DNA from: Acholeplasma sp.
Lineage (GTDB): Bacteria > Bacillota_I > Bacilli_A > Acholeplasmatales > UBA5453
Reading direction: 5' to 3'
DNA: 45,437 nucleotides
NCBI GenBank assembly: GCA_036677365.1
Contig: JAVBWN010000008.1
Coordinates: 1 to 45,437, forward strand
In this document: positions 8,690-31,706 of the stretch, piece after piece
How the letters are laid out: every line of letters starts with the position of its first letter
Position numbering within the stretch: position 1 is the first letter of the stretch
The notes under the pieces: generated by a model
What the model was told of the DNA's origin: nothing
The model's database searches: none
What the model saw: the letters and a program-made list of their open reading frames with translations, nothing else
Translations under genes and position numbers: made by a program

Positions 8690-9724
8690 TTATGCCCCCC
8701 ATCTCACGACATTGGCTGCCCATACATACCCAATCCCTGCAGCAAGCATGCATACAATCGTGCCATCTTTAACTTGACCGCTTTGTAATGCCAAATGTAA
8801 GGATAAGATTTGGTCGATTTGACCAATGTGTCCGTAGTTTTCTAAGTAAATCGATTGTTCAGGTTGTAAATTCAAATCTTGTAATAACGATACATGGCCT
8901 GAACGTTTCATATGTAAGATGGCTAGGAATCCATCTTTGGAAAAATCCGCTTTGGTGTAGTTCGATTTGCGTAAAGATTCTTCAATGCACTTGTACCAGT
9001 TTGGCATCGATACTTCATTCAAGCGATTTTTCATTTTAATTGGGTCTAATAAACGTAAAGACTTTTTCGCTTCTTCGACGTTATCTTTGGTAATTGGGTT
9101 ACAAATACCGCCAATTTCAACCCCAGCAGTTCTTGATAATGACCCATCCCCAATGATGTGTGAACCCAAAAGTTCATTTTTTCCATGGTTCTTCTTTAAG
9201 ATGATGGCACCACCACCAGCTGCTAGGTCATACATCATCGACATGTTTTTATCTGTGTAATCGACGAAATCTAAATTTCTATAACCGCCAACCACCATGA
9301 CCATGTGGATATCATCATCTGCGATCAACATATCCTTAGCCATTTTTAGGGCAGATACGGTGGTGCAGCAACGGTTTTGAACGTCAATTCCCCAAGCGTT
9401 CACAGCACCGATACGGTCTTGAACGTATAATGCAGATGTGGTCAATGGGTATTCTTTCCATTCCTCAGTGACACATAAAATCACATCGATGTCTTTCGGG
9501 TCAACGCCTGTGTTTTTTAAGCAATCCAGGGCAGCCAATGCCCCCATTTCTTGAGATCCGTCCATGACTGGGTCTGCAGGAATGACTTTCTCTAGGATGC
9601 CTAATTTTTCTTCAATGGCTTGTTCTGTCCAAACGCCATTGGTTCTTTCTGCGATTTCTTTCGCAGTCATTCTACCTTTGGGTAAATATATACCTGTACC
9701 AACAATACCTACAGATGGTTTCAT
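8690..9724 (-). CDS. 3-oxoacyl-ACP synthase III (FabH)-like thiolase-fold enzyme
   Basis: GIVGTGIYLP N-terminus, catalytic Cys in QNRCCT, ILHMK, YGHIGQ and AAGIGY. Confidence 0.85.
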   Translation of the reverse strand: MKPSVGIVGTGIYLPKGRMTAKEIAERTNGVWTEQAIEEKLGILEKVIPADPVMDGSQEMGALAALDCLKNTGVDPKDIDVILCVTEEWKEYPLTTSALYVQDRIGAVNAWGIDVQNRCCTTVSALKMAKDMLIADDDIHMVMVVGGYRNLDFVDYTDKNMSMMYDLAAGGGAIILKKNHGKNELLGSHIIGDGSLSRTAGVEIGGICNPITKDNVEEAKKSLRLLDPIKMKNRLNEVSMPNWYKCIEESLRKSNYTKADFSKDGFLAILHMKRSGHVSLLQDLNLQPEQSIYLENYGHIGQIDQILSLHLALQSGQVKDGTIVCMLAAGIGYVWAANVVRWGA

Positions 9725-9809
9725 AAATAGATCCTTTCCAACCTCTAATGAGGCTTAATTATAACGAACGACAAGCCAAACGGTCGTTTGGCGTGTTTTT
9801 CAGTTTGTA

Positions 9810-10529
9810 TTATAGACGCATGCCACCATTGACATTGATGGTTTGTCCAGTGATATACGATGAGTCATCGCTGGCTAAGAATAATGCCACTTTAGCGATT
9901 TCTTCTGGTTGTCCGAGACGACCCAACATGGTCAATTTAGCAAATCCATCGAGCAATTCTTGTGGTACTGTTTTTAAAATATCGGTCATGACATACCCTG
10001 GGGCAATCGCATTGACACGGACATTCGCACCTTTTCTCGCAAATTCTTTCGCCCAAGTCATGGTTAAACCCAAGACCCCAGCTTTGGTGGCTGCATAATT
10101 GGCTTGTCCAATGTTACCAAATACACCCACTACAGATGAAATGTTGATGATCGAACCTTTGCCTTGGTTTTCCATTTGTGGACCAACATGGCGGGTTAAG
10201 TTAAATACACCTTTTAGGTTTACGTTGATGACCGCATCCCATTGTTCATCGGTCATTTTGCGTGTCATAGCATCTTTCGTAATACCTGCATTGTTGACCA
10301 AAATATCGATGTGCCCAAACTCAGCCAAAACTTCATCGAAGAAAACTTTGCAACCTTGGGAGTCTGTGACGTTTAATTTCTTGTAAACTACATTTTCGCA
10401 TGCATAGGTCATTTCACCCATGTCTGCAGCGATGACTTTCGCACCTTCTTGTGCAAAAGCTTTCGCAATTTCCATACCAATACCTTTAGCACCACCAGTA
10501 ATGATGGCAACTTGTCCTTGTAATTTCAT
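9810..10529 (-). CDS. fabG: SDR 3-oxoacyl reductase / acetoacetyl-CoA reductase (FabG/PhaB-like)
   Basis: TGGAKGIG, NNAGIT, SSVVG..GN.GQANYAATK and NGG. Confidence 0.88.
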   Translation of the reverse strand: MKLQGQVAIITGGAKGIGMEIAKAFAQEGAKVIAADMGEMTYACENVVYKKLNVTDSQGCKVFFDEVLAEFGHIDILVNNAGITKDAMTRKMTDEQWDAVINVNLKGVFNLTRHVGPQMENQGKGSIINISSVVGVFGNIGQANYAATKAGVLGLTMTWAKEFARKGANVRVNAIAPGYVMTDILKTVPQELLDGFAKLTMLGRLGQPEEIAKVALFLASDDSSYITGQTINVNGGMRL

Positions 10530-10541
10530 AAAAATCTCCTT

Positions 10542-11750
10542 CTATCGTTTGACGATGATGGCAGTACCCATACCGCCACCGATGCATAGGCTGGCTAAGC
10601 CCAGATGCTTATCTTGTTTTTTGAGTTCATGTAACAGTGTAACGATGATTCTATTGCCAGAGACACCCACTGGGTGACCTAAGGCAATCGCACCACCATT
10701 GACATTGGTTTTGCTTAACAAGTCTTGTTTAGATACACCATGTGCTTCAGCAAGTTCATTAACGACACCTAAACTTTGAGCTGCAAATGCTTCATTGAGT
10801 TCAACGAGTTCCATGTCTGATAATTGTAAGTTTGCTCTATGCAATACATCTTTAACGGCTGGTACTGGACCTAAGCCCATGACATTCGGGTCAACCCCAC
10901 CTTGTCCGACAGCAACGATTTCACCCAATACTGGTAAGTGATATTGTTTTACCATCGCCTCAGAAGCAAGAATTAAGAAACTTGCGCCATCATTGATACC
11001 AGATGAACTGCCTGCTGTGACTAAACCATCGTTTTTAAACGCAGGTCTTAGTTTCGCCATCTTTTCAGCATTCGTGCCACGATTTGGGTATTCGTCTTGT
11101 GCGAATACGATGGTTTCTTTTTTGGTTTTAATTTCAATTGGTACGATTTCATCCGCGAAACGACCACTGTCGACCGCGTTGATTGCCTTTTGTTGTGATC
11201 CTAATGCGAAAGCATCCATTTCTTCTCGACTGAGTTGGTGTTTAACTGCGATGTTTTCAGCGGTGATGCCCATGTGCATACCTGGAATGAATGAATCATG
11301 TAAAGCGTCTTGTAAAATGGTATCTTTCATTTCGATTGCGCCCATTTTAACGCCATCTCTCATCTTGGATGTGACAATGTAAGGTGCCCCACTCATGGAT
11401 TCTACCCCACCCGCAACAACCAAATTTGAAAATCCTGCTTGAATGCTCACATAAGCGTTCATCACGGATTTCATGCCGCTACCACATACCATATTTAAGG
11501 TATAGGCTGGAATTTCATTGGATAAACCTGATTTGATTGAGATTTGTCTTGCGATGTTTTGTCCAAGACCTGCTTGGATGACATTGCCCACAATCACTTC
11601 ATCAATCTTGTCTTTAGGGACTTGGGTATCCGCTAAAAGTTGCTTCAATACTTGTATCCCAAGTTCGACTGGATGAAGGTCTTTAAGCGTGCCTAAGAAT
11701 GCGCCAATCGGGCTTCTTTTCGCACCAACAATAAATACTTTTTGATTCAT
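10542..11750 (-). CDS. Acetyl-CoA C-acetyltransferase (thiolase)
   Basis: NMVCGSG, GGVESMS, NEAFAAQ, GGAIALGHP and CIGGGMG. Confidence 0.95.
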   Translation of the reverse strand: MNQKVFIVGAKRSPIGAFLGTLKDLHPVELGIQVLKQLLADTQVPKDKIDEVIVGNVIQAGLGQNIARQISIKSGLSNEIPAYTLNMVCGSGMKSVMNAYVSIQAGFSNLVVAGGVESMSGAPYIVTSKMRDGVKMGAIEMKDTILQDALHDSFIPGMHMGITAENIAVKHQLSREEMDAFALGSQQKAINAVDSGRFADEIVPIEIKTKKETIVFAQDEYPNRGTNAEKMAKLRPAFKNDGLVTAGSSSGINDGASFLILASEAMVKQYHLPVLGEIVAVGQGGVDPNVMGLGPVPAVKDVLHRANLQLSDMELVELNEAFAAQSLGVVNELAEAHGVSKQDLLSKTNVNGGAIALGHPVGVSGNRIIVTLLHELKKQDKHLGLASLCIGGGMGTAIIVKR

Positions 11751-12056: not shown

Positions 12057-12085
12057 TTGTATTTTGAAGCTTGGTGCTATACAAT
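12057..12085 (+). promoter_or_regulatory. Sigma-A-type promoter of tetR
   Basis: TTGTAT-N17-TACAAT. Confidence 0.65.
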
Positions 12086-12101
12086 GAAATCGGTGATTAC
12101 T

Positions 12102-12710
12102 ATGAACAAAGAATCGTATCGTTATCCAAAGACCACCTCAGGCATTAAAACATTCAATAAAATTGTATCTACAGGCAAAAAGCTATTTGCGAAAAATGGT
12201 TATCAATCGACTTCCATCAATGATATCATCGCTAAATCCAAAATTGCCGCAGGTACTTTTTATATTTACTTTGACAGTAAATTGGCTTTATATCTATATA
12301 TTCTCGACTTGTATCGCGTTTCTATCCGAAAAGCCAGTGCCGATGCAACCAAGGGTTTAACACATCGATATGACATCGAACGTGCAGGGATCAAAGCCTT
12401 CATTTCCTATGCATTAAAAGACCCACTTGCCTATCGAATCATATGGGAATCCCTGTTTGTTGACTTTGAAATATTCAAGAACTACTATGAAAGCTTCGCA
12501 GAATCCTATATCAAGCATTTGAAAGAATACGTTGATAAAAAGGAAATCAGAGCAGATTTGGACTTAGAAACCCTATCTTATACACTCATGGGTATATCCA
12601 ATTTCGTAGGGTTACAAATCATATTTAAGAAAGATGTTCAACCCGCTGAAATCGATCGAGTCATCGATGAAGCTATGAGTATTTTAGACCGTGGCATTTT
12701 CGTAAAATAA
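12102..12710 (+). CDS. TetR/AcrR family transcriptional regulator
   Basis: LFAKNGYQSTSINDI...AGTFYIYFDSK HTH. Start placed at ATG 12102 after GGTGA and downstream of the predicted promoter. Confidence 0.9.
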   Translation: MNKESYRYPKTTSGIKTFNKIVSTGKKLFAKNGYQSTSINDIIAKSKIAAGTFYIYFDSKLALYLYILDLYRVSIRKASADATKGLTHRYDIERAGIKAFISYALKDPLAYRIIWESLFVDFEIFKNYYESFAESYIKHLKEYVDKKEIRADLDLETLSYTLMGISNFVGLQIIFKKDVQPAEIDRVIDEAMSILDRGIFVK

Positions 12711-12771: not shown

Positions 12772-12807
12772 AAAAAATACCGCCATCAACTGGCGGTATT
12801 ATTTTTG
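12772..12807. terminator. Bidirectional terminator between convergent tetR and sipW
   Basis: AATACCGCCA-tcaac-TGGCGGTATT flanked by A and T runs. Confidence 0.7.
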
Positions 12808-13451
12808 TCTTTGTCAGCCTCTCTGCGGGCTTTCATCTCTGCTTCAAGTTCGAGTCTTAAGCGTTCTTTCTCCGCTTTGATCCAAATCTCTTTTTCAGTT
12901 TCATGTTTCAATAACATTTTTTCTTCTTGAGCGGCTCTTACCATCTTTAAGAAATTGATGAGTTCATGCATCAAGATGAAGAGTAATAAAACGATGATTA
13001 CGAGGAACACAACATTTTTATAGTTCAAGGTAATGTTCCCTACATCCAACAACATAAAATGAGAAACGACAATACCAATAAAATTTTCTTCAGTGACAAA
13101 ACCAGCATCAACAGATGGGTTATTATCACCTTTCGTGATTAATCCCTCACTCGTTGCTTCGATTGCCCTATGAACGATATTTTTATCGGTTCGAAAAGCG
13201 ATGATGGGTTCTTCACCTTCCAAGACACTTTCATAAACGGAATCATAGGAAACGTAACGAATGATGATAAATTCACCCGTCATGATGGTGGGTTCCATTG
13301 ACCCTGACCCAACCACCGAATAGGTGTGGTTGAATATCTTTAAATATCTGTTTTCTTGTAATGCCAATGTCCCTAGTAATAATAAAAGGATGGATGCCAA
13401 GAAGAAAAATACTGTGAATACCGTCATCGATATTTTTATGATTTTTTTCAT
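12786..13451 (-). CDS. sipW: Signal peptidase I, SipW/archaeal S26B type (second copy)
   Basis: N-terminal TM, SGSMEP (Ser), IVHR (His), TKGDNN, C-terminal TM and a charged tail. Confidence 0.9.
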   Translation of the reverse strand: MKKIIKISMTVFTVFFFLASILLLLLGTLALQENRYLKIFNHTYSVVGSGSMEPTIMTGEFIIIRYVSYDSVYESVLEGEEPIIAFRTDKNIVHRAIEATSEGLITKGDNNPSVDAGFVTEENFIGIVVSHFMLLDVGNITLNYKNVVFLVIIVLLLFILMHELINFLKMVRAAQEEKMLLKHETEKEIWIKAEKERLRLELEAEMKARREADKDKNNTAS

Positions 13452-13470
13452 CTAGATCCCCCCTTTTATT

Positions 13471-15516
13471 TTATTCGGATTCATTGTCACCTACAGGTGT
13501 TTTGGTCTCTTTTGGTAGGCCATCTTTTTTGAGTTTTTCGATGTCTTTTTCAGACTGTTTTTGAATATCTAGCAAGGCTTTTTCTTGACGTTTAGCCATC
13601 GTAAGTTTGAGTTTTTCAAACTCTTTCAATAGTTTTTCTTGTTCTTTTTGACGTTGAAGTTTAAGTTTCTTCATCATTCGATCGTGTTCAATCTTGGCTT
13701 TCTTACGCAAGTTTTGAACTACCAAACGATACTCAGCCTTGGCTTTCTTTTGAGCTTCGGTAATTGCCAATTTTTCTTCTCTTTCAAGTTTCTTAATTTG
13801 TTTAGCCTGTTCTTTTTCAATGGCTTCACGTTCTGCTTGAAAGTGTTTATCCAGTGTAGCAATCTTTTGATCCAATTGGCTTTGTAAGGTTTGTTTTAAG
13901 TTATTAATGAGTGCATTATTTTCTTCAATTGCCTTTTGAGTCTCTGAAGTGATATTTTCATCGACTTGTTTCTTTTCATTGGTTAAAGCTTCACGGTTTT
14001 GGTTGACCAGTTCTAAATTATCCGCCAACATTTGTGCTTCTTTAGCCGCGATGTCTTTTTGTTCTTTTAAGGCCGCATCAATCTTAATGCGTTCAGCTTC
14101 ATCTTCGGTCTTCTTACGGTTCATCAAGATGAGGCGTTGATTCGCCGCTTCAATGTCTTTCATCAATTTGCGTTCTAAACGAATGGCATTATTGTAGTCG
14201 ACTTCTTTGGTTTCACGAATGATTCTCGCAATTTTGGCTTTTTCTTTCGAAACTTCTAGATTTTTCTCAACGTCATCGTCTTTGACCATGCGAGCAAAGT
14301 AATCATCATTTTCTTCGAGTTCGAAATGGTGTTTAAATATGGCATTTGATATTGAGATGGTATCACGTAATGCACGTTTTAACCCAACTTCATAGGTAGA
14401 GCTGCGTTCAACCTCTTCATCCACACGTTTTTTAAATATCTTGATATTTTCTTGTAAGAAGTATTGGTTGATACGTTCATCTTCAACCACGATGGGCTCT
14501 GGCGTATCGACAATATCATTGACATGAATATTGGCAATCTTAAATGCCTTTTTGATGATTTCTTTTTCGACAATTTCATCGTAAGATGGCTTTCTAACCC
14601 CTTGGTTAAAAGCAACCATCGTGAATGTATTGAGTGCTAAGCGTTCAACCGCATCTTGATAAGACCGGTCGAATGTTAAGTCTTTTTCTTTCACTGTAAC
14701 ATCGTATGCCAACGTATTATATCTGTCCAAGAATAGCCATAAGACATAACAATTTCTAAAATCAACGTTCTTTAAAATGACGTTGGTTTGCATGATTGGT
14801 GGCAATACTTTCTTTTCACCAGCCATGATGGTCATGAATGGTGAATTTCGAATCGAGGTTACACGTTTAGATAAGTATTCAACACGTTCCAGAATACCTT
14901 TGTTGTATATATTGATGGATTTATCTTCTAAGTCTTCCTTGAACACAACATCGAGGTTTAAATCGACTTCAAGGTCACTGATGTGAAAGGTTGACGTGTA
15001 GTTAAAATGTTTCTTTTGATACGAAATGATGTTATCCTTGATCAATTCATGACGGCTTCTGACGAAGTTAAAAAGCCGTTCTATGAGGGTCATCACAAAT
15101 CGGTTTTCATACGTACCATAGTCGATGTCGGTTTCAGTCGTCATAATCTTCTTCGGCATGACAACTTCATCACGAATTTCTCGGATAAAATGGGTATGCG
15201 AAGCCAAATGACGAATCGAGTTACTACGAATCTTTTTGGCTTTTTCGATTGGTACAATTTCTTCTAAGTATTTTAAACCCGATTTCGGGTTCAATATGAT
15301 TTTTTCAATGCTTGGAAAATACGATTCGATGGTCTTAATCCACGTTTCATCAAACGTCTTGGTTTCAGACATACTCTTTTGATATAGTGTGTTTTTTCCC
15401 GCCATCAAAGCGCTATAAAAAGTCTTTGGAAAAGTATGGGACTTTTCCAAATCTTTGAATGTTTGATCGTATGAATAATAGAACTGACTTAATTTGTCGG
15501 TTTGTCTTTTTTTCAT
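13471..15516 (-). CDS. DUF2357 / McrC N-terminal-like protein with a long C-terminal charged coiled coil
   Basis: YGTYENRFV motif and a KNVDFRNCYVLW segment. Roughly the last 280 aa are K/E/Q-rich and helical. No PD-(D/E)xK motif is visible. Adjacent to an McrB-like gene. Confidence 0.75.
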   Translation of the reverse strand: MKKRQTDKLSQFYYSYDQTFKDLEKSHTFPKTFYSALMAGKNTLYQKSMSETKTFDETWIKTIESYFPSIEKIILNPKSGLKYLEEIVPIEKAKKIRSNSIRHLASHTHFIREIRDEVVMPKKIMTTETDIDYGTYENRFVMTLIERLFNFVRSRHELIKDNIISYQKKHFNYTSTFHISDLEVDLNLDVVFKEDLEDKSINIYNKGILERVEYLSKRVTSIRNSPFMTIMAGEKKVLPPIMQTNVILKNVDFRNCYVLWLFLDRYNTLAYDVTVKEKDLTFDRSYQDAVERLALNTFTMVAFNQGVRKPSYDEIVEKEIIKKAFKIANIHVNDIVDTPEPIVVEDERINQYFLQENIKIFKKRVDEEVERSSTYEVGLKRALRDTISISNAIFKHHFELEENDDYFARMVKDDDVEKNLEVSKEKAKIARIIRETKEVDYNNAIRLERKLMKDIEAANQRLILMNRKKTEDEAERIKIDAALKEQKDIAAKEAQMLADNLELVNQNREALTNEKKQVDENITSETQKAIEENNALINNLKQTLQSQLDQKIATLDKHFQAEREAIEKEQAKQIKKLEREEKLAITEAQKKAKAEYRLVVQNLRKKAKIEHDRMMKKLKLQRQKEQEKLLKEFEKLKLTMAKRQEKALLDIQKQSEKDIEKLKKDGLPKETKTPVGDNESE

Positions 15517-15528
15517 TTAAAAACTCAC

Positions 15529-17067
15529 CTAGTTCATCTTCTTAAGATCTGTTAGGAATCCGATACATTCTTTGAACACGTTCTTACCGAACAACTTATC
15601 GAGCAATACGATCAGTTCGCTCAGTTCATCTTGTAAGAATGGTAAGTTCAAGACTTCGAACTTTCTTAAGATCTTTCTCGCAACCATATAATCGAGTGCT
15701 TCGTATTCTGAACCACCACAACCGACATAAATCGGTGTGAACAGTTTAATTTGTTTCATGATACGGTTACCAAAGGTGATTTTGAATTTTTGTGCGATAA
15801 AATCATCGAGTTTACCTAAGTTATCGAGTGCTTTTGGAGAAATTGGGTGTGCTTTCCATGAAGCATCAAACAAGGTCTTTAAGTATTCATAGCTCATGGT
15901 GACGCCTTCTGTGTAAGGGGCATCCACAAATTCAGCTTTTGTATTCATAATAATGGAGGATGCACGGTCATAAACTTTATCGGTAATCGTGAATGTGGAG
16001 TCATCCTTGTTCGCTGTACCGACGAACCATACATTTTGAGGGACTAAAATCTTGCCATCCATGAAGTGCTTAGGGTCGGTCGGTTGACGGTCAGAGACCA
16101 CGTCAATCTTCCATTCGGCTTCGTTAGGCATTTCCATGATGGATAGGAATTCTGCGAAATAATACTCAATACGGGCTAAGTTTAATTCGTCTAGGACGAT
16201 GAAGTTTAAATCTTCACGATACGTGGTTTCGTAGAGTTCTTTTAAGAAGTCAGTTTCATTAAACTTCTTGGTAAATTCGTTTAAATAACCGATCATTTCG
16301 GCTCTATCACGCCAAGAAGGTTGGACGGAAATAATCGCGGAATCGTGTCCGAAAAATTTGCCCATCGCATAAGGTAAACTGGTTTTACCGGTACCGGAAA
16401 TACCTTCTAAGATTAAGATCTTAGAGGATGCCATACCAGCAAAGAATGTGCGTATGATCTTTTCATTGTAATATAAGTTAAGTCTGGATGCTGAGAAGTT
16501 TATAAAGCGGTTGACGAGTTCTGGTAGTCCTATGGTGTCTTCTGGTGTCATCTGAATCGATGTGATGACATTTCGATAGGCTTCATCCACTTGTGTTAAT
16601 TTAGCAAATCTGGTTGGTCCAATGGCTTGTGGTGCATTCTTATCTGGTTTTTCTTGTTCTTTACCAGGTAATGACGAGGATGCTGAGGCACCTCCAAGTT
16701 TCAACATTAAAATCTTATTTTTTTCATCGGCAAGTTCAACGGTTTTTTGTGTTAATAAAGCGACTTCCTCAAGTAATTCATCTTTATCCATTTCAGTTTT
16801 AACAAAACGGATGTATACACGAAGTAACTGATAAATTTTGAGTGTAAAGAAAACGATAAAAACCATGTTGATCCCAAGGACCAATATGGCGATTAGCCAG
16901 TCTAAGAAATCAAATAATGTACTGGCTTGTACTAATTTATCAAAATATCCAGCAACGTCATTAATAAATAAATCGGCAAATGCACCAATGATCGCATTGA
17001 AAAATTTGCCGATATTTACGAAAAATTCTCTAATGAAGTCGATGTAATAACGAGCAAAATTAATCAT
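15529..17067 (-). CDS. McrB-like AAA+ NTPase with N-terminal membrane anchor
   Basis: Walker A GISGTGKT, Walker B IVLDELNLARIEYYFAEFLS, McrB NxxD signature GTANKDD, and DKVYDRA. Hydrophobic WLIAILVLGINMVFIVFFTL is followed by a coiled coil. Confidence 0.85.
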   Translation of the reverse strand: MINFARYYIDFIREFFVNIGKFFNAIIGAFADLFINDVAGYFDKLVQASTLFDFLDWLIAILVLGINMVFIVFFTLKIYQLLRVYIRFVKTEMDKDELLEEVALLTQKTVELADEKNKILMLKLGGASASSSLPGKEQEKPDKNAPQAIGPTRFAKLTQVDEAYRNVITSIQMTPEDTIGLPELVNRFINFSASRLNLYYNEKIIRTFFAGMASSKILILEGISGTGKTSLPYAMGKFFGHDSAIISVQPSWRDRAEMIGYLNEFTKKFNETDFLKELYETTYREDLNFIVLDELNLARIEYYFAEFLSIMEMPNEAEWKIDVVSDRQPTDPKHFMDGKILVPQNVWFVGTANKDDSTFTITDKVYDRASSIIMNTKAEFVDAPYTEGVTMSYEYLKTLFDASWKAHPISPKALDNLGKLDDFIAQKFKITFGNRIMKQIKLFTPIYVGCGGSEYEALDYMVARKILRKFEVLNLPFLQDELSELIVLLDKLFGKNVFKECIGFLTDLKKMN

Positions 17068-17094
17068 CGTTTTACCTCACAACCAGAAGAAATA

Positions 17095-17805
17095 CTATTT
17101 GTTGGATTCTTCCTTCTTAAGTTCTTCTAATAATTCTTTACGAATTCTTTCTTTTTCAGCTTCAAGTAGTTGTTCTTTATCAACTGCGTGTTTAGCTTCA
17201 ATCTTTTCTTTGTTAACTGCGAGTAATGTCTTAGTTAAGACATATCCTTGATATGCTAATAATAATACGACAGGTGCAATTACGAAGATTGCAAAACCTG
17301 TTGGAGTTTGTAGATAAGATACTGCACTACCGACACCACCAACATGTCCTGTATGAATGGCTTTAATATTGTCATAGGTTACGATTTCATATTGAACGCC
17401 TGTATTATCTCCACCTATAACATATGGTGCAGATGCAGCAGCTTTATCCCCTTGGGTTACGATATAACTCGGTGTTATATGTACAACTCTGTGGGTATTT
17501 AATGCAACAAGGTTTAAATCATAAAAAGTGACAATATCTCCAACTTTTAAGTTGTCTTTGTCGTTATCACTCAATAATCTAACGAATACAAGTGAGCCTT
17601 TATCAAAAGAGTCTGCTTTAGTACCTTCCATTGAGTCAGAAATAACTGGCAAGAATCCACGTCCGAAGACATTTGCAATGTCTTTATTGGATTTTACACT
17701 AAGATTCGAAATAGAAAATAACAATAATAAAACAATCAATGAATAAAACAATATGTTACCACCGATTTTTAATGCTTTTATAATATTAACTTTAGATTGA
17801 CTCAC
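17095..17805 (-). CDS. sipW: Signal peptidase I, SipW/S26B type (first copy)
   Basis: SDSMEG, NTHRV, TQGD, two TM segments and a charged tail. GTG 17805 is preferred because ATG 17814 abuts the AGGAG. Confidence 0.85.
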   Translation of the reverse strand: MSQSKVNIIKALKIGGNILFYSLIVLLLLFSISNLSVKSNKDIANVFGRGFLPVISDSMEGTKADSFDKGSLVFVRLLSDNDKDNLKVGDIVTFYDLNLVALNTHRVVHITPSYIVTQGDKAAASAPYVIGGDNTGVQYEIVTYDNIKAIHTGHVGGVGSAVSYLQTPTGFAIFVIAPVVLLLAYQGYVLTKTLLAVNKEKIEAKHAVDKEQLLEAEKERIRKELLEELKKEESNK

Positions 17806-17911
17806 TAGACACATCTCCTTTTAGACAACGTTTTCACTAATACAATTATATTATATTATTTGTCGAAAATCTAGTATCAATGAGATTATCTTAAAATATG
17901 AGATATTAAAG

Positions 17912-17944
17912 ATAAGGTTTGCATGGTGTCATGCAAACCTTATT
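17912..17944 (-). terminator. Hairpin/terminator after the putative major subunit gene
   Basis: ATAAGGTTTGCATG-gtgt-CATGCAAACCTTAT perfect inverted repeat. Confidence 0.8.
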
Positions 17945-17955
17945 AATTAATGAGA

Positions 17956-18960
17956 TTAGATGTTATTTGCTGTAAAACCTAATTGAACAGTTAAGTATGA
18001 ACTAAAGATTGCGTCAAATGTGTCAGCATCAAAACCTTCAATCCAAACTCTAACAACCACGTTTCCAGTATAACTGCTACCTGAACCTGTGAGTGTAGCA
18101 ACTACTTGTGCGCTTGAGTTAATATCAGTAGTTCCAGCAATAGTTGGTAACACTGTACCATAGGTTGTATTTTTACCGGCTTGAATACCGTATGCTGCTG
18201 CACCATATGCTGCTGTACCTGGAGCATAAACATCAGGAGTTCCACCATCATTATCGTGGTCAATCAATGTTAAATCATAAGAAGCAACTCCAGTTGTTGA
18301 GTTATAAATTTGTGGTGTACCGCTTGATAAACCTGAAGGAGCTTGATATGTATAGGTGCTTGAACCTTGAATGGAAACTCTAGCACCAGTCCAAGCAGCC
18401 ACATTTTTAACTTCATTTAAAACCCAATCAGTTGAATTATCAGAAGCTTTAAATGTTGGAACGTTAACTGTCCATGGTTGACTATCTCCGGATAATGTTG
18501 CTGAACTCCAAACAATTTCTTTAGCTGCAGAAGATCTAAAATATAATGTAAATTCAATGAATCTTGCGGATTTGCTATATGATTGAGTAACTAATGATTC
18601 ATTTCTAATTACAGAACCGTTAGCTGAGGTTAGATTGTCAAATCTAAAGTTTGTATACATTTTGCTTATGTAATCCTGTATTACTGATGTAGGCAGTACG
18701 GTATACCAAATTGTATTGGAATCTACAGTTGGAACATAGAAGTCATCGGATGTCCCAAGAATTGTATCCACACCTGCATTTTGAACTAAAGTGCCTAATG
18801 TGATTTCGATACCTTCCCCTGCAGTGACTTGTGCTTCAAATGCACTGATTGAAGCTTTATTTGTTAATGTGAACCATGCGAATGTCGATGTACCAAGTGC
18901 GATTACGACTAGTGCCATCGTTACTACTGATAAAACTAATTTTTGAGTTAATTTTCTCAT
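17956..18960 (-). CDS. Secreted protein with SipW-type signal peptide (TasA/CalY-like, putative major filament subunit)
   Basis: MRKL..K + hydrophobic stretch + GTSTFA|WFT; S/T/G-rich beta content; C-terminal VRVWIEGFDADTFDAI...LTVQLGFTA. Confidence 0.7.
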   Translation of the reverse strand: MRKLTQKLVLSVVTMALVVIALGTSTFAWFTLTNKASISAFEAQVTAGEGIEITLGTLVQNAGVDTILGTSDDFYVPTVDSNTIWYTVLPTSVIQDYISKMYTNFRFDNLTSANGSVIRNESLVTQSYSKSARFIEFTLYFRSSAAKEIVWSSATLSGDSQPWTVNVPTFKASDNSTDWVLNEVKNVAAWTGARVSIQGSSTYTYQAPSGLSSGTPQIYNSTTGVASYDLTLIDHDNDGGTPDVYAPGTAAYGAAAYGIQAGKNTTYGTVLPTIAGTTDINSSAQVVATLTGSGSSYTGNVVVRVWIEGFDADTFDAIFSSYLTVQLGFTANNI

Positions 18961-19036
18961 TTTGCTTTTCCCCTTTTTCCTTTGTTTTTTATGTCTTTTT
19001 TATTTCATATCAATTACGATTGTAACCGATTTGTTG

Positions 19037-20008
19037 CTAAATATCAATACTTTCCGCGGATTGAAACTCAAAACTGAATAGCAATGTGTCTTCATATATC
19101 GCATCGAATGAATCAGCGTCCCAGCCTTCAATCCAAATATTCAATCTAAACTTTCCCATATAATAGGTTCTGTTTTGATTATTCACTTGATCGGTAGCGA
19201 TTAATGTTGCAACCTTTGAATTTGAATCAAGTGGTATGTATGGATTATCAGGTGAAAAGTTTGACAAGCGTTCAATGAGTGGTTGTGGTGTTGTTGGTAA
19301 TTGTATAAACACCGCTTTCGATTTTCTTAAATAATCTACACCACCATAGTTTTTACCATAACCACGATCCGGATTTTCCGTCGGGTCATAGATGAAACTC
19401 ACCAATTCACTGTTATCTCTTGTATCCAAGGGATTATCTGTTTTCAATTCGGTAATTGAAATCCTTATCGCATCTTTAGCGTAATAAGTTCTGATTTCAT
19501 TTTCGAACACGATGTCATCTGGTCCAAGATTGAATGTCACTGGACTTCTAAATGGTACACCTTTAGATAGCACATATGTTCCGCGAGTTGGAGGGCTATC
19601 AAATGTGCCGGTTGAACTGACGTTGTTGACGAGATAGACATCTCTGTAGCGCGTGGTTGAACGTACATACAATTCTAATGAAATGTAGTTGCCATTCGGA
19701 ACGCCTTCGAAATTCAATTCTGCATCTACCAACTGGATTCTGTTACCGATGAAGTTTGTGCCATCGGTAGAAGTCAAATCCATCAGTCTGGCACCTCGCC
19801 AAATTTGGTTAACTTGTTCTGTCGTGATTTCACTGGACCAGTTGATGCCATCCAATGAAAATTCTAGGTTACTGCCTTGATTCATGGTGAGTTGAAAACC
19901 GTCGACTCTATTGGTTTCCCCCATACTAACCCACGCGAAGGTGGCTGTTGTGAAGGTCAATGTGAGCAGGATCATCGATAGCGCTGTAATATAAAGTTTC
20001 TTAATCAT
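19037..20008 (-). CDS. Secreted protein with SipW-type signal peptide, paralogue of 17956-18960
   Basis: TATFA|WVS; shares LTS..G, LY(V/F)RS and WIEGWDADSFDAI with its neighbour. Confidence 0.7.
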   Translation of the reverse strand: MIKKLYITALSMILLTLTFTTATFAWVSMGETNRVDGFQLTMNQGSNLEFSLDGINWSSEITTEQVNQIWRGARLMDLTSTDGTNFIGNRIQLVDAELNFEGVPNGNYISLELYVRSTTRYRDVYLVNNVSSTGTFDSPPTRGTYVLSKGVPFRSPVTFNLGPDDIVFENEIRTYYAKDAIRISITELKTDNPLDTRDNSELVSFIYDPTENPDRGYGKNYGGVDYLRKSKAVFIQLPTTPQPLIERLSNFSPDNPYIPLDSNSKVATLIATDQVNNQNRTYYMGKFRLNIWIEGWDADSFDAIYEDTLLFSFEFQSAESIDI

Positions 20009-20012
20009 AGGC

Positions 20013-20753
20013 TTATGCCGCCGCGTTTCTGATGCCGAACTTCATATCAATTTTGATGCTACCGCGTTCCATGTTCGGTTCTGTATCATACCCTTCAATC
20101 CACATGAATACAGTAAATTTTAATACTTTTTGGGTTTGTAACTTTTCGATGGTCTCACTGATGATTGGGTCTCTGCTGTAGTTTTCACTCAGAAAGTTTT
20201 TTGCTTGTGGCATCCCAATCGGATAGTTCTTCGGTGTCGTATCCGGTTTCATATACATCTGTTGTGTGTAACCGAATGGCTCTGCACCTACTTGTTCAAC
20301 AAGAATCATGATTCGGATGTATTCATCCAGACTCTTCGTTACTTCCACGATGTTGATCGAGTAAGTCAAGTTGATCATTTCAAAGCCATTGTTTCTCACA
20401 AAGAATGAATAAGCCAGATAATCGGCATCGGGGTCCTCGTAAAGACCAACCCCACCTTGTGCTTCTGCAATTTTTAGATAACTGTAGGTTGCTTCATCGG
20501 TGTTTTCTTTCGGATCGACGTACAATCGAGAGGTTGCGCTATTTTCTCCAAATAATGGATCTAAGGATAACTGAATCCCTTTCGCAACTGCCTCTTCGTT
20601 CATCGATATGACGAATGAACCGGTGGATAACCCGTAAAATGTGACAACCCCAAATCCGAGTGAAAGTAGACCCGATATGATAACGCCTAGCGTTAAGAAT
20701 CTAGCCGTCATTGTGGTTGTCTTCTTGATCCCAAGAACGGTTGAAAGTCTCAT
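20013..20753 (-). CDS. Membrane-anchored WIEG-motif protein, distant paralogue of the two downstream genes
   Basis: N-terminal TM without a TFAW site; FFVRNNG, IRIMI and FMWIEGYD...IKIDMKF. Confidence 0.65.
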   Translation of the reverse strand: MRLSTVLGIKKTTTMTARFLTLGVIISGLLSLGFGVVTFYGLSTGSFVISMNEEAVAKGIQLSLDPLFGENSATSRLYVDPKENTDEATYSYLKIAEAQGGVGLYEDPDADYLAYSFFVRNNGFEMINLTYSINIVEVTKSLDEYIRIMILVEQVGAEPFGYTQQMYMKPDTTPKNYPIGMPQAKNFLSENYSRDPIISETIEKLQTQKVLKFTVFMWIEGYDTEPNMERGSIKIDMKFGIRNAAA

Positions 20754-20789
20754 ATCTCACACCCCTTGTTCGTAAACAACTGTTTTTTT

Positions 20790-20829
20790 ATAACAAAAAG
20801 CCAGCTGTCACGAAAAATGACAACTGGCT
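20790..20829 (-). terminator. Riboswitch expression-platform terminator
   Basis: Minus strand AGCCAGTTGTCA-tttttcg-TGACAGCTGGCT-TTTTGTT; the 5' arm overlaps the aptamer 3' end. Confidence 0.85.
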
Positions 20830-20895
20830 ACCATTTATATAGGCCCTATAGCTTTGCGTCACTAGATTTCTCTAGTTTTGCCTTTAACATTAGTT
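20812..20895 (-). promoter_or_regulatory. Cyclic di-GMP-I (GEMM) riboswitch
   Basis: Minus strand GGCAAAACTAGA-GAAA-TCTAGTGACGCAAAGCTATAGGGCCTA...GGTAGCCAGTTGTC: GNRA-capped P2, GACGCAAAGC junction and P3 match the class consensus. Confidence 0.93.
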
Positions 20896-20914
20896 TGAAT
20901 TTTACTACACCTAT

Positions 20915-20943
20915 AATATACACCCGATAAAAAAGAATGTCAA
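20915..20943 (-). promoter_or_regulatory. Sigma-A-type promoter upstream of the c-di-GMP riboswitch
   Basis: TTGACA-N17-TATATT. Confidence 0.8.
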
Positions 20944-20962
20944 CAGTTTTGAAATATTTTTT

Positions 20963-22387
20963 TTATAATTGGATGAGTTTAGATAAATCGGTTTCTTTAT
21001 AGTATGTTTTCAAATTCTCAAATGACATCGGACGGGCAAAATAGAATCCCTGAACTATATGGATATTGTAGCCAGCAATGGTTTGTAACATCTGTTCGTT
21101 TTCAATGCCTTCTGAAATGATCGTTTTTTGATTTTTCTCAGCAAATTCAACGAGTAACGTTACGAATCTGGATTTAACATAAGAATGCTCTTCATTTAAG
21201 AATTCTTTCGAGAGCTTGATGGTATCAAGTGGCATCGATTCTAGTTTTGCTAACGTCGCGTAGTCTAGTCCAAAACCATCGACAGCGAACTGGAAGCCTA
21301 AGGCTTTGAGTTGTGTGATGTTTTGTAAGACGACATTGTGTCTATCGAATAACGCGAATTCAACGATTTCTAGGATGATGTTTTCTGCATTCATCTTATA
21401 CTTCTTGAGTACCCTTTGAAAGTCCACAGCCAATGCTTCATTCATCAACTGTTTCGGGCTGATGTTAAATGTAAACTTGATGTTGGCTTTCGGGAAGCTT
21501 TGTTTGAATTCATAGTAACTCTTGATTAAAGATTCCAATCCCCACAGACCTACCCAATAAATATCCCCAGATTGTTCCATGATGTTGATGAACTTAAATG
21601 GTGACAAGAGCCCATGTTCTGGGTGATTCCATCTTAAGAGGGCTTCAACCCCATAAACTTCTTTGGTTTGGATATCCACGATTGGGTGGTAATATAGTAA
21701 GAATTCTTTTTTCGCGATGGCGTTTTTGATTTGATAATAGTAATCCAAGAATTCGCTTTCGGTTTCACTCATGTCTTCACTATAGAGACGAATCGCATTA
21801 CCACCGGTCTTTTTAACGGTGTAGTTGGCGAGCTTCAATGAGTTTAATAAAGATTTCGTATTTTCGCCGTGCATTGGGTAATATGCAATCGAAATCGACG
21901 AAGTCAAATTGACATCGGTAGATCCGAATAAAGTGATGGTTTCATTGATTTGTTCTTGGATTTTTCTTGAAAACTCCACCGCATCCGATTGGTCAAATTC
22001 CATTGGCATAAAAATAACAAAAATGTCATTTTCAAAACGTGCCGCCTTGACTTCTTTTGGTAAGACCCCACGGATACGCTTTGTAATCTTTTCAATCATT
22101 TTATTGGCTTCTTTTTCACCAAAGGCTTGAATGATTTCAGAAAAACGGTCGATATCGATGTAAACCAGTGAAAACATATTGTCTTTACCGATTTTTGAGA
22201 TGTAGTTGGTAATCATGCTGTTCATCGCTGATCGGGAGATGATCCCTTCGACCAAAATGGATTTTTCTTCTTTCCACTTTTGTTCAGCGTATTTCCAATT
22301 GACATAAAGGAAATATGAAGCGACCGCAGTCGCAATCATCAAGAACAACATCAATATGACGGCTAAGGTTGGACTCATGTTTTGCAT
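20963..22387 (-). CDS. Membrane-anchored GGDEF-EAL protein, both domains degenerate
   Basis: One TM. DIDRF..I is present but the active site reads ENDIF. EALLRW, EIVE, SEGIE and QGFYF are present, but DDFGTG reads DGFGLD. Confidence 0.88.
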   Translation of the reverse strand: MQNMSPTLAVILMLFLMIATAVASYFLYVNWKYAEQKWKEEKSILVEGIISRSAMNSMITNYISKIGKDNMFSLVYIDIDRFSEIIQAFGEKEANKMIEKITKRIRGVLPKEVKAARFENDIFVIFMPMEFDQSDAVEFSRKIQEQINETITLFGSTDVNLTSSISIAYYPMHGENTKSLLNSLKLANYTVKKTGGNAIRLYSEDMSETESEFLDYYYQIKNAIAKKEFLLYYHPIVDIQTKEVYGVEALLRWNHPEHGLLSPFKFINIMEQSGDIYWVGLWGLESLIKSYYEFKQSFPKANIKFTFNISPKQLMNEALAVDFQRVLKKYKMNAENIILEIVEFALFDRHNVVLQNITQLKALGFQFAVDGFGLDYATLAKLESMPLDTIKLSKEFLNEEHSYVKSRFVTLLVEFAEKNQKTIISEGIENEQMLQTIAGYNIHIVQGFYFARPMSFENLKTYYKETDLSKLIQL

Positions 22388-22391
22388 AACA

Positions 22392-24929
22392 TTACCTCTT
22401 TCTTGTCAATGATGCAGATCTATCTATATTATATGCTTTTAAGAGCGCGATTGCATCTTCATATTTCATGGCTTTACCTAAATAGAAGCCTTGAATGATG
22501 TCTGCGCCACTCTTTTGTAAGAACTTAAATTGCTTCTCATCTTCGACCCCTTCTGCGATGATTTGTAGGTCTAGGTTTTTCGCGAGCGCGATGATCATAT
22601 TAATAATCGCGCGCGAGTGCTTATCGGCAGTGGAGTGTTTGACGAATTCTTTATCGATCTTAATGGCGTTGATTGGCAGTTCTTTTAGATACAAGAGTGA
22701 GCTGTACCCCGTACCAAAGTCATCCAAGTGAATGTCAAACCCTTTCGATTGTAAGAGTTTGAGTTTTTCAATGATGATATCAAACGAGGTCATCAAGAAG
22801 GTTTCTGTAATTTCGATCGATATCGAGTGTTCTTTTAGGCCATATTGTTCATACGCATTGACGAGTTCTGTAACGAACCCGGCTTGTAAGATTTGAACTG
22901 GAGAGACGTTCATCGATATCTTGATGTCGTAGTCTTCCATTTCTTTAGCCAGTTTGAAGGTTTCATTCATGACGATACGACCGATGTCGATGATCATATT
23001 ATTGTTTTCAGCAATCTCAATGAATTCCGAAGGTGAGTCGAGTTTGTATTTCGGATTATCCCAGCGTACCAATGCCTCAAATCCGACGATTTTTTCAGAA
23101 TTGATGTGGTATTGAGGTTGAAGATACATGACGAATTCATGACGTTCAATCCCAGTCATCATGTCGGTTTCAATGACTTGTCTTCTGGATAAACTTTGCC
23201 CGAAAGTGACGTCATAAACTACGGGTTTTTGTGAGTGGTAAGCGGCCGCACGGTTGAGGGCTAAAATCGCGTTATCATAGACCTGATCTTCATGGATGGA
23301 AACATATTCATCGCTATCAATATTGAATTGACCAATTCTAAATTGTAAAACGAACTTGTTCTTGTCCACATCAATCGGTTTTTCGAAAGCTTCGGTTAAA
23401 CGGTCAGCCCATGTTTCAATCTTTTCATAATTTTCAAGGTTTTCAAACAATATACCAAAGCGGTCAAATGAGATGTGGTATAAGGATGCTTGGAAATCTT
23501 TTAAGGTTTCCTTAACTGTTTTCGCTACATAGATTAAAACTTCACCAGACAACTTTTCACCGATGACTTTGGTAATATCGCCATACTTAAAAATCCCGAA
23601 AATGACTAAAGCGTTTCGATGTTTGAAACGTTTTTCATCCCCAACCAATGCTTTAACATCGGCTTTCATATAGTTCATGTTCGGTTCATTGGTGATGTTG
23701 TTATAAAAGGCAATTTCTCTGTGATATTTATAGGTTTCTTCGAGTTTAGTGATGTCATCCCCAACGAGTGCATACGTCAATGCATAACGCACAGGGATGA
23801 AGCGAATGTATATTTCACCTGAAGGTACTGCGAATTTCGCAACAAATGGTTCTTGTTTTTTCATCTTTTCAAACGCTTCGGTACCACCATCACGCAGTGG
23901 AATATCCGAGACGTTTTTATATTTTTTAAAGTTACGGATGTTGCGTTTGAAACTGGCATTATAAAAGAATATTTTGCCTTTACCGTTGACTTTTAATATG
24001 TATGGTTTGACATAATAATGGATCAGACGTGCGGATTCAATGTCCTCTGATTTCGAATCGAGGATGCGATAAACCGCGAACATGCTCGAAACAAACACAA
24101 TCATGATGATGATAAAAGCAAACATCAAACTGTTCGTCAAGAATGCCATCGAATCTAATAAATCATAATAGTTGATGACCTGACCAAAATAAATCCCACC
24201 GTCTGAAGTGATGGTTTGCATCTGGCTATAGGCGAAAAAGGAAGGTTCATTGAACATCGAAAACTGGCCAACCCCGGCAGTCATACTTGACCCGTTGATG
24301 CCTTGGAAGAATGCGGTTCTGTCGCTTTCAGAAAATACATTGCCAAACTGATCGGTATCATAATCGCCCGCTTGATCGACATACGTATATCCATCGCGAT
24401 GGAAAATGACGTAGCGGTATTTAAGTACGTTGAATGGTTCAACGATGGTATTGAAATAGTCGTGAGCGTCGATTAATGCGACAACATCATCATAGCTGAA
24501 TGCGACATAGTTGGTGGTGACATCATACCCATCTAAAACCAAACTGAGGGGGTAAATCGAAATATTTTGGTCAAAATAATTGGTATCCAAATACCGGAAT
24601 GAATAATTGTAAAATTGACCGTTCACCGTATACCCAGTTAAGGATTTAGAAACGACCAAATCATAGGCATTGATACCATTCAATTGGATGACTGGGTCTA
24701 AGCTTTGTTCGCGATATTCATCGACCATTTCTTTAAATGTATCGTAGGTTTGATTGAGCGTGACTTCAACTCGGGTAGAAATGCCAAGATTATAGGTTCT
24801 AAAGGATTCTTCTGCACGACTCGATATGAAGTTTCGTGTGATGGACATGTAAAAAAGCACCAACACGATGGAGAGGATTAAGAATAATGATGTGAATATG
24901 ATGGCTAAACGTAAACGATAACGACCCAT
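22392..24929 (-). CDS. Membrane sensor GGDEF-EAL protein, probable c-di-GMP phosphodiesterase
   Basis: TM, ~250-aa extracellular sensor, TM; GGDEF site reads SFDRF. The EAL domain is intact (EALVRW, EITE, DDFGTGYSSL, KIDK, EGVE, QGF). Start 24929 follows GAGGTG. Confidence 0.9.
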   Translation of the reverse strand: MGRYRLRLAIIFTSLFLILSIVLVLFYMSITRNFISSRAEESFRTYNLGISTRVEVTLNQTYDTFKEMVDEYREQSLDPVIQLNGINAYDLVVSKSLTGYTVNGQFYNYSFRYLDTNYFDQNISIYPLSLVLDGYDVTTNYVAFSYDDVVALIDAHDYFNTIVEPFNVLKYRYVIFHRDGYTYVDQAGDYDTDQFGNVFSESDRTAFFQGINGSSMTAGVGQFSMFNEPSFFAYSQMQTITSDGGIYFGQVINYYDLLDSMAFLTNSLMFAFIIIMIVFVSSMFAVYRILDSKSEDIESARLIHYYVKPYILKVNGKGKIFFYNASFKRNIRNFKKYKNVSDIPLRDGGTEAFEKMKKQEPFVAKFAVPSGEIYIRFIPVRYALTYALVGDDITKLEETYKYHREIAFYNNITNEPNMNYMKADVKALVGDEKRFKHRNALVIFGIFKYGDITKVIGEKLSGEVLIYVAKTVKETLKDFQASLYHISFDRFGILFENLENYEKIETWADRLTEAFEKPIDVDKNKFVLQFRIGQFNIDSDEYVSIHEDQVYDNAILALNRAAAYHSQKPVVYDVTFGQSLSRRQVIETDMMTGIERHEFVMYLQPQYHINSEKIVGFEALVRWDNPKYKLDSPSEFIEIAENNNMIIDIGRIVMNETFKLAKEMEDYDIKISMNVSPVQILQAGFVTELVNAYEQYGLKEHSISIEITETFLMTSFDIIIEKLKLLQSKGFDIHLDDFGTGYSSLLYLKELPINAIKIDKEFVKHSTADKHSRAIINMIIALAKNLDLQIIAEGVEDEKQFKFLQKSGADIIQGFYLGKAMKYEDAIALLKAYNIDRSASLTRKR

Positions 24930-25048
24930 ATGTGGTGCACCTCTATCGGATAAACTCAATTGAAATTGAAACATCCATGACATACTTCAAAAAACATCAG
25001 TGTGATGTCTCTTTAGGTAATATATACTTAATTATATCATTGATTAAG

Positions 25049-31603: not shown

Positions 31604-31613
31604 ACATACCTCC

Positions 31614-31706
31614 AAAAAAATAAAACTCCTACAACTAAAAAAGTTGTAGAAGTCATCAGCAAATTTGCGGTTTAAGTCAAAGACTTGGGGAGCACTTCAT
31701 TCCCAT
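31614..31706 (-). promoter_or_regulatory. Fluoride riboswitch (crcB motif) with overlapping terminator
   Basis: Minus strand GGGAATGAAGTGCTCCCC...AAACCGC...GCTGATGACTTCTAC, then hairpin ACTTCTACAACT/AGTTGTAGGAGT and a T-run. Promoter TTGACT-N17-TATCCT at 31711-31739. Confidence 0.9.

Follow-up and report, generated by a model that had tools for sequence, protein, structure and literature searches.

What might a restriction-type AAA+ motor do when it carries a membrane helix, is paired with a McrC-like partner in which no nuclease was detected, and is encoded between two signal peptidases? The question is raised by two genes, here called B and C, in a stretch of Acholeplasma sp. DNA of 45,437 nucleotides (nt) (assembly GCA_036677365.1, contig JAVBWN010000008.1), which we refer to as the window and number along its forward strand. 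An earlier note on this DNA had placed open reading frames for a McrBC-like pair at 15529..17067 (B) and 13471..15516 (C), and both are present there on the minus strand; it took the pair for a membrane-tethered GTP-driven motor acting on protein or for a membrane-linked defense variant. We propose, with a probability of roughly 0.55, that B and C are the nucleoside triphosphatase (NTPase) module of a CoCoPALM system within a surface-fiber operon that is induced by cyclic di-GMP (c-di-GMP). The pair belongs to CoCoPALM, a class that has been named and is uncharacterized.

The operon, which like all features below lies on the minus strand unless stated otherwise, is ordered promoter, c-di-GMP-I riboswitch, T3, T2, T1, SipWb, B, C, SipWa, and terminator. 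Judged from the coordinates of the open reading frames in the window, 27 nt separate SipWb from B, 12 nt separate B from C, and 19 nt separate C from SipWa.

A McrB-family AAA+ protein with a membrane helix

B (512 amino acids [aa]) is a McrB-family AAA+ protein and putative GTPase of the NxD branch, an assignment based on its motifs, a sequence match in the PDB, and hydropathy. The Walker A (GISGTGKTS, residues 222-230), Walker B (D293-E294), N353-K-D355-D356, and D367-R368 motifs were identified, and their residues are invariant or nearly so in an alignment of 16 relatives, in agreement with what the earlier note had reported for the Walker and DR residues. That note had read NKDD as the NxxD motif of McrB, which we correct to NxD(D/E): neither N353 nor D355 varies across the 16 sequences, and position 356 holds D or E, giving the signature N-x-D-(D/E), and in the B paralogue of the window's own genome position 356 is E. 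The NxD signature is described as "usually followed by a glutamate or a second aspartate" in the pertinent section of PMC11090510. McrB was the only solved structure to match B by sequence, both when the single sequence was used (E 4e-4, residues 197-373) and when a profile of the 16 relatives was compared with PDB sequences (E 1e-5). No Pfam family scored above its cutoff in B, and AAA_5 gave a weak match in 14 of the 16 aligned relatives.

A hydropathy scan predicts one strong transmembrane (TM) helix in B (residues 58-76; Kyte-Doolittle 19-residue mean, 2.81), a feature on which the earlier note had staked its interpretation. Ahead of this helix is a conserved amphipathic N terminus of 55 residues, and after it comes a conserved, charged juxtamembrane helix (residues ~85-125). 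Because basic residues directly follow the TM helix, the AAA+ domain of B is suggested to be cytoplasmic. Residues 1-190 consist of TM and charged helices, and no DNA-recognition domain was detected among them, with no Pfam domain above cutoff. Heptad periodicity was not significant for B, C, or the peptidase tails in two crude tests, which are too blunt to reject a coiled coil. Of the N-terminal architecture that had been described for B, the TM helix and the lack of a detectable DNA-reading domain were therefore borne out, and the coiled coil was not.

A distant paralogous pair occurs on another contig of the window's own genome (locus L021, genome G000, contig C12, 4792-9083). Its first protein, of 908 aa, has 12 predicted TM helices before a McrB-like AAA+ domain with an N-R-D-E motif; its second, of 521 aa, is C-like and keeps the YEN motif. 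SipW and T genes are not adjacent to this pair.

A McrC-like partner with no detected nuclease

C (681 aa) is a McrC-like protein in which DUF2357, sequence alignment, and an AlphaFold2 (AF2) model delimit a module (residues 1-460) and a tail (residues ~416-681). DUF2357 is the N-terminal domain of McrC (PMC11090510, Figure 3 legend). It matches residues 59-163 of C (E 2e-11; 44 bits against a cutoff of 23.3) and is matched by 15 of 23 aligned C orthologues, and the YENR motif (residues 136-139) is invariant in 23 relatives. The DUF2357/YENRF region of the earlier note was thus recovered, with the difference that conservation does not stop there: residues 1-460 are conserved as a single module wider than DUF2357, and the tail varies in length and sequence. 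The AF2 model of residues 1-460 (mean predicted local distance difference test [pLDDT] score, 76) includes a long beta-hairpin at 166-195. Past residue 236 it contains helices and one strand only (236-460), with long helices from 347 onward and a continuous helix predicted over 416-459.

The tail is K/E-rich, as had been noted from the start, and poor in proline and glycine (2 of each per 222 residues). No nuclease was detected in it, again as described; its designation as a coiled coil was not borne out by the heptad tests, and a single alpha-helix is possible instead. No TM helix was found in C by the hydropathy scan, and, as in B, no DNA-binding domain was detected.

Several lines of sequence and model evidence indicate that C is likely without a nuclease. 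Family searches returned no nuclease family in any of the 23 C orthologues or in any of 40 more distant relatives, which were selected among the 150 best representatives because they are notable in length, have an N-terminal extension, or score weakly, and of which 16 contain DUF2357. A conserved D...(D/E)xK is absent from the C alignment, in which conservation extends to D264 and E277 and not to the lysine that follows. A Foldseek search of residues 1-460 against the PDB gave no match at E <= 0.001, and a comparison of a C profile with PDB sequences returned only coiled-coil noise, such as apolipoproteins (E >= 0.06). VIA-align returned generic helical bundles (Z <= 8.0) and listed no nuclease, which does not exclude one. 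We also looked for fusions of C to SipW and found none in the examined loci and none in 9 further relatives, most of which have N-terminal extensions; the extensions of C relatives that were inspected are of low complexity. The C family as a whole comprises 1531 clusters (50% identity) at E <= 0.001 and 409 at E <= 1e-30.

Signal peptidases and secreted proteins

Signal peptidases flank B/C on either side. SipWb (17095..17814) is an archaeal/SipW-type signal peptidase I that matches NCBIfam TIGR02228 (1.9e-15) and SipW (1.1e-18), and SipWa (12786..13451) is a second SipW-type peptidase matching TIGR02228 (1.8e-16); for both, TIGR02228 scores above cutoff. The catalytic Ser/His pair is conserved in 99% of 72 sequences for SipWb (S61 and H108) and invariant in 56 sequences for SipWa (S51 and H94). 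Both peptidases have N- and C-terminal TM helices followed by a highly charged cytoplasmic tail, which is at least 25 aa long in 53 of 62 SipWa and 74 of 75 SipWb sequences. The SipWb tail contains a conserved motif, LExEKExxRxEILxEL, and a similar stretch occurs in the SipWa of the window. The downstream SipW, mostly of the SipWa type, was found only at loci with C: of 68 loci with sufficient sequence downstream, 57 have both, 7 neither, 4 C alone, and none SipW alone, a distribution to be read as a pattern only, given that related genomes are not independent.

The first three genes of the operon encode predicted secreted or membrane-anchored proteins. T3 (20013..20753; 246 aa), the first operon gene, is predicted to be exported or membrane anchored by a hydrophobic helix at residues 19-37 and bears a C-terminal WIEGYD; its orthologues occupy the same position in related loci. 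T2 (19037..20008; 323 aa) has a SipW-type signal and a beta-sandwich AF2 model, and T1 (17956..18960; 334 aa), with a C-terminal WxEGxD, is its secreted paralogue. Both have an invariant Ala-Trp at the signal end (A25-W26 in T2; A28-W29-F30 in T1). When the T2 model (pLDDT 86; predicted template modeling score [pTM], 0.82) was compared with known structures by VIA-align, the TasA fiber (8aur_A) was the best match (Z 6.0; root mean square deviation [rmsd], 3.7; 138 residues aligned) and was recorded as the only chain with Z >= 5. The next structural matches were donor-strand pilins and archaeal TasA-like filaments (Z 3.7-5.2). Atlas gave only a weak Peptidase_M73 lead (0.85).

A C-terminal motif, W-x-E-G-x-D(-x-D), is invariant in T1, T2 (window positions 17956-20008), and their relatives. 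It may be a metal-binding or strand-docking site.

Predicted riboswitch control and RNA-library contigs

The operon is preceded by a c-di-GMP-I riboswitch aptamer (RF01051) in its 5' leader (20816..20892), identified with Rfam as a full-length match of 67.2 bits (gathering score, 35; E 3.9e-11). Overlapping it is a terminator-like hairpin with a 13-bp stem and a T run (20799..20829; fold z-score, -4.29), and none of 200 shuffled sequences folds as well. This leader hairpin is the probable expression platform. Because its 5' arm is part of the 3' side of the aptamer, with which it overlaps, the riboswitch would be an ON switch in which ligand binding prevents termination. Upstream is a promoter-like site recognized by consensus only (TTGACA, 17-nt spacer, TATATT; 11 of 12 consensus matches; 20915..20943), and the region holds no more sites of this kind than would be expected from shuffling. 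A further hairpin between T1 and SipWb (17912..17943), predicted with a 14-bp stem and a poor T run, may be a partial attenuator. The operon is closed by a terminator-like hairpin that is predicted to be bidirectional (12776..12800).

The same riboswitch family recurs in relatives. Of 15 further loci scanned, 14 have between one and four tandem c-di-GMP-I riboswitches upstream of T3, and the sole exception is a locus that has B without C. At 7 of the 15, another c-di-GMP riboswitch is found farther downstream, ahead of a block that consists of small T-like genes and a giant gene. Arrays of three to four tandem c-di-GMP-I riboswitches were seen at L015 (4426-4877), L016 (5217-5544), and L093 (4775-5199), compared with one in the window.

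RNA libraries from four studies include contigs with >=95% identity to the operon, and these span the junctions of SipWa with C (12931-13785), C with B (15041-16326), and B with SipWb (16513-17436). In all four runs, contig depth is far higher over T3/T2 (18794-21000) than over the peptidase, B, and C genes (13000-17400). This drop would fit attenuation past the subunit genes, though contig depths cannot rank genes.

Conservation of the locus

Of 41 related genomes, 31 contain B-like matches, as do 23 of the 26 that are of good quality; the full-length matches in the 41 share 56-97% identity with B. Across the class, B was found in 56 of 200 sampled genomes; it is concentrated in some families and was found in none of the sampled genomes of 17 others. 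Of 12 loci fetched from relatives, 8 have the order T3-T2-T1-SipWb-B-C-SipWa.

With one genome scanned per species, 584 relatives were obtained, and we counted neighbors for the best 80 of these, a set that leans toward similarity, wherever the flanking sequence allowed. Among these best 80, the immediate neighbor of B is C at 60 of 67 loci. SipW genes are present upstream, at a distance of no more than two genes, at 54 of 65 loci and downstream, at no more than four genes, at 52 of 60; 38 of 42 loci have two or more T-like genes upstream, and 21 of 34 have an upstream GGDEF/EAL gene. The record titles of the best 80 include Acholeplasmataceae, Anaeroplasma, and Izemoplasmatales, together with metagenome-assembled genomes labeled Bacilli, Clostridia, and Erysipelotrichaceae. 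The operon order is conserved over several orders of wall-less or small-genome Bacillota and is shared by Acholeplasmatales, Izemoplasmatales, Anaeroplasma, and gut Bacillota related to them. Going by record names, B and C orthologues are also present in Acholeplasma laidlawii, A. hippikon, and A. granularum, which are cultivable species. Many related loci continue past SipWa with two to three small T-like genes and a giant gene, a block that the window locus does not have.

Genomic surroundings

Directly upstream of the operon is a pair of GGDEF+EAL genes (20963..24983) identified with Pfam; they encode proteins of 474 aa and 863 aa, both with TM helices, and probably supply or consume c-di-GMP locally. 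The remaining genes of the window are metabolic and transport (housekeeping) genes. A defense island was considered as the setting of the operon and rejected on the basis of these neighbors, and searches with Pfam, NCBIfam, and PADLOC-type models found no nuclease or HEPN domain among the operon genes.

Downstream of the operon are a TetR gene (12057-12710, plus strand) and a thiolase, SDR, and KAS III-like set (8690-11750, minus strand). At loci L025 and L026, a TetR/thiolase-type set likewise replaces the second riboswitch-controlled block of most relatives. Elsewhere in the window we identified a fluoride riboswitch (RF01734, 31640-31713, minus strand; 42.8 bits, E 1.2e-8) directly 5' of an Na_H_Exchanger-family membrane gene (30431-31615). 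A TnpB/Cas12f-like fragment (OrfB_IS605 plus TNB domain) lies at the window edge (44777-45337, minus strand).

Proposed role and alternatives

Overall, we infer that B and C form a GTP-driven membrane module controlling SipW-dependent fiber processing and assembly at high c-di-GMP. When c-di-GMP is high, the riboswitch would block the leader terminator and the operon would be transcribed. T1-T3 would be exported and anchored by their SipW-type signal peptides. B would form a McrB-like hexamer at the inner face of the membrane, held there by six TM helices, and the DUF2357 region of C, with its long hairpin and the invariant arginine of YENR, would enter the B ring and stimulate GTP hydrolysis in the way that McrC stimulates McrB. 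Both SipW peptidases may bind to this complex through their charged cytoplasmic tails, with the juxtamembrane helix of B and the long C tail as the docking sites. Hydrolysis of GTP could then time or position signal-peptide cleavage, leading to donor-strand polymerization and fiber release. The module would act on membrane proteins and not on DNA. The motor on protein suggested by the earlier note is thereby partly supported: neither a DNA-reading domain nor a nuclease was detected, the genes lie in a SipW/fiber operon, and they are near-universal in the order.

A bolder version is tentative and, in our view, somewhat doubtful. It holds that B and C are the motor of a new class of pilus machinery, in which a restriction-derived GTP ring beneath the membrane mechanically gates two signal peptidases and thereby drives, times, or reverses the donor-strand assembly of TasA-like fibers in wall-less bacteria under a c-di-GMP riboswitch. 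If so, there would be an NTP-dependent route to donor-strand fibers distinct from type IV, chaperone-usher, and sortase pili. If the role that we propose above is right, a DNA-restriction motor has been rebuilt as a membrane machine for surface-fiber biogenesis, and Bacillota without a wall or with small genomes, gut lineages included, would have this machine as a core trait controlled by c-di-GMP.

A number of observations weigh against a role in fiber assembly. Seven loci have B without C and SipWa (L014, L034, L038, L045, L048, L049, and L052). In a FastTree phylogeny of 90 B proteins they form one derived cluster inside Acholeplasmataceae, sister to complete loci (support, 90; 2 label changes). 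They are arranged T3-T2-T1-SipWb-B, followed by three small genes and a giant gene of ~1600-2300 aa, and at least one genome with such a locus also carries an adjacent complete locus. In a second derived clade of the tree, a small one (L019, L059, L067, and L074), a GGDEF/EAL gene is followed by B and C, frequently behind a giant gene, and neither SipW nor T genes occur in the vicinity. Given these two clades, the module is separable from the full gene set. The fiber subunits themselves are also weakly assigned: T1-T3 have no match in Pfam or NCBIfam, a Foldseek search of T2 against the PDB found nothing at E <= 0.001, and the likeness of T2 to TasA, predicted from its model, is weak. Likewise, the McrC of Thermococcus gammatolerans (6ut5_G) ranks only 38th among the VIA-align matches of C (Z 6.4; rmsd 4.2; 134 residues) and is not distinctive, and B matches the candidate-defense model PDC-M26A of PADLOC at 2e-37. 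The RNA-library contigs are not proof of transcription, since DNA may be present. Literature searches for experimental work on CoCoPALM found none, the naming paper and its preprint being the only relevant hits. Finally, TasA and BsaA fibers are not known to need an NTPase, and a motor role is therefore unexplained by precedent.

We considered other roles for B and C. The one that survives best, though it is improbable, is that they act on surface cargo of another kind, in its export, anchoring, or quality control, and not in fiber polymerization, for example by clearing cleaved signal-anchor peptides from the peptidases or by organizing the secretion site. Candidate cargo would be the giant proteins of 1000-2300 aa and the small T-like proteins encoded past SipWa in most relatives. 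That block is common, stands under its own c-di-GMP riboswitch in nearly half of the further loci described above, and is retained by the loci with B alone; furthermore, the presence within a single operon of two SipW peptidases whose catalytic residues are intact suggests two sets of substrates. However, the window locus, with its TetR gene and thiolase in place of the block, has nonetheless kept B, C, and both peptidases. In addition, McrC fills the central pore of McrB in solved McrBC complexes, as set out in the portion of PMC11090510 on this point, so threading of peptides would not be expected.

Less probable still is that B and C organize the membrane or division site of wall-less cells in the manner of PcdA, with the linkage to fiber genes being only regulatory. 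B is near-universal in its order, CoCoPALM GTPases are described as FtsB-like in their N-terminal part (PMC11090510, naming paragraph), and PcdA provides a case of a McrB-family NTPase co-opted for division (PMC10602043). Yet Pfam gave no FtsB/DivIC match in any of 6 B N-terminal regions or 16 full-length B proteins, B was not found in 144 of the 200 sampled genomes of the class, and a position between two peptidases in a riboswitch-controlled operon, which holds at most loci, is unexpected for a division gene.

We regard it as very unlikely that B and C still act against phages or plasmids as a membrane-linked McrBC- or CoCoNuT-like variant with an effector other than the McrC nuclease: B descends from McrB and has the PADLOC match noted above, and its NxD-branch relatives, the CoCoNuTs, are predicted defense systems, but nuclease-less CoCoNuT McrC homologues are always accompanied by another nuclease in the account given in PMC11090510, whereas no nuclease or HEPN domain was found in this operon, and the defense variant raised by the earlier note is disfavored because these single-locus genes are core and syntenic, unlike those of a patchy island, their neighbors are housekeeping genes, and their expression appears to be tied to c-di-GMP by the riboswitch.

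Comparison with known systems

Canonical McrBC of Escherichia coli and T. gammatolerans (6hz4, 6ut6, and 6ut5) resembles the B/C pair in the AAA+ Walker A/B motifs and sensor asparagine, in a partner with DUF2357, and in the adjacency and shared orientation of the two genes. In contrast to McrB, B has a TM helix in place of a DNA-binding N-terminal domain, and its motif is NxD(D/E) and not NxxD; no PD-(D/E)xK was detected in C, and the pair are conserved operon members and not mobile defense genes. CoCoNuTs, as described in PMC11090510, share the NxD branch, the long helical or coiled-coil extensions, and McrC homologues without an active nuclease. They are cytoplasmic, however, and always include a HEPN or other nuclease, whereas here neither was found, the GTPase is predicted to be membrane anchored, and the genes are linked to secretion.

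The operon also resembles those of TasA-type fibers, tapA-sipW-tasA of Bacillus subtilis and sipW-bsaA-bsaB-bsaC of Clostridium perfringens (PMC11580942), in which a SipW-type peptidase is encoded beside secreted paralogous subunits. An aromatic residue just past the predicted cleavage site is a further likeness, and the TasA fiber is the best fold match of T2. By comparison, the TasA-type operons as described there have one peptidase and no NTPase, whereas this one has two peptidases with conserved tails together with B and C, and the T subunits share no detectable sequence family with TasA. A search for literature linking TasA-like proteins, McrB, signal peptidase, and donor strand found no such paper; PMC11580942 was considered as a McrB-SipW link and rejected, as the mention of McrB located in it is an E. 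coli strain genotype.

PcdA of Staphylococcus aureus is comparable in that a McrB-family NTPase has moved from restriction to a cellular function (PMC10602043). PcdA differs from B in its retained EVE domains, its cytoplasmic location, and its binding to both FtsZ and DivIVA, and it is not known to have a McrC-like partner or a peptidase context.

The closest counterpart is CoCoPALM, which was named in a single paragraph, with its analysis deferred, by Bell, Makarova, Wolf, Koonin, and colleagues (eLife 2024, PMC11090510). The paragraph describes NxD-branch GTPases fused to an FtsB-like TM and coiled-coil part, coiled coils on both the McrB and McrC homologues, and associated genes of the signal peptidase family. 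B is likewise of the NxD branch with an N-terminal TM and helical segment, C has a long helical tail and no detected nuclease, and SipW-type peptidases flank the two genes. Our results contradict that paragraph on no point, although the FtsB homology was not reproduced by Pfam. Beyond it, they add SipW peptidases with intact catalytic residues and conserved cytoplasmic tails, a putative TasA-like cargo, predicted control by a c-di-GMP riboswitch, and the status of a core gene in Acholeplasmatales.

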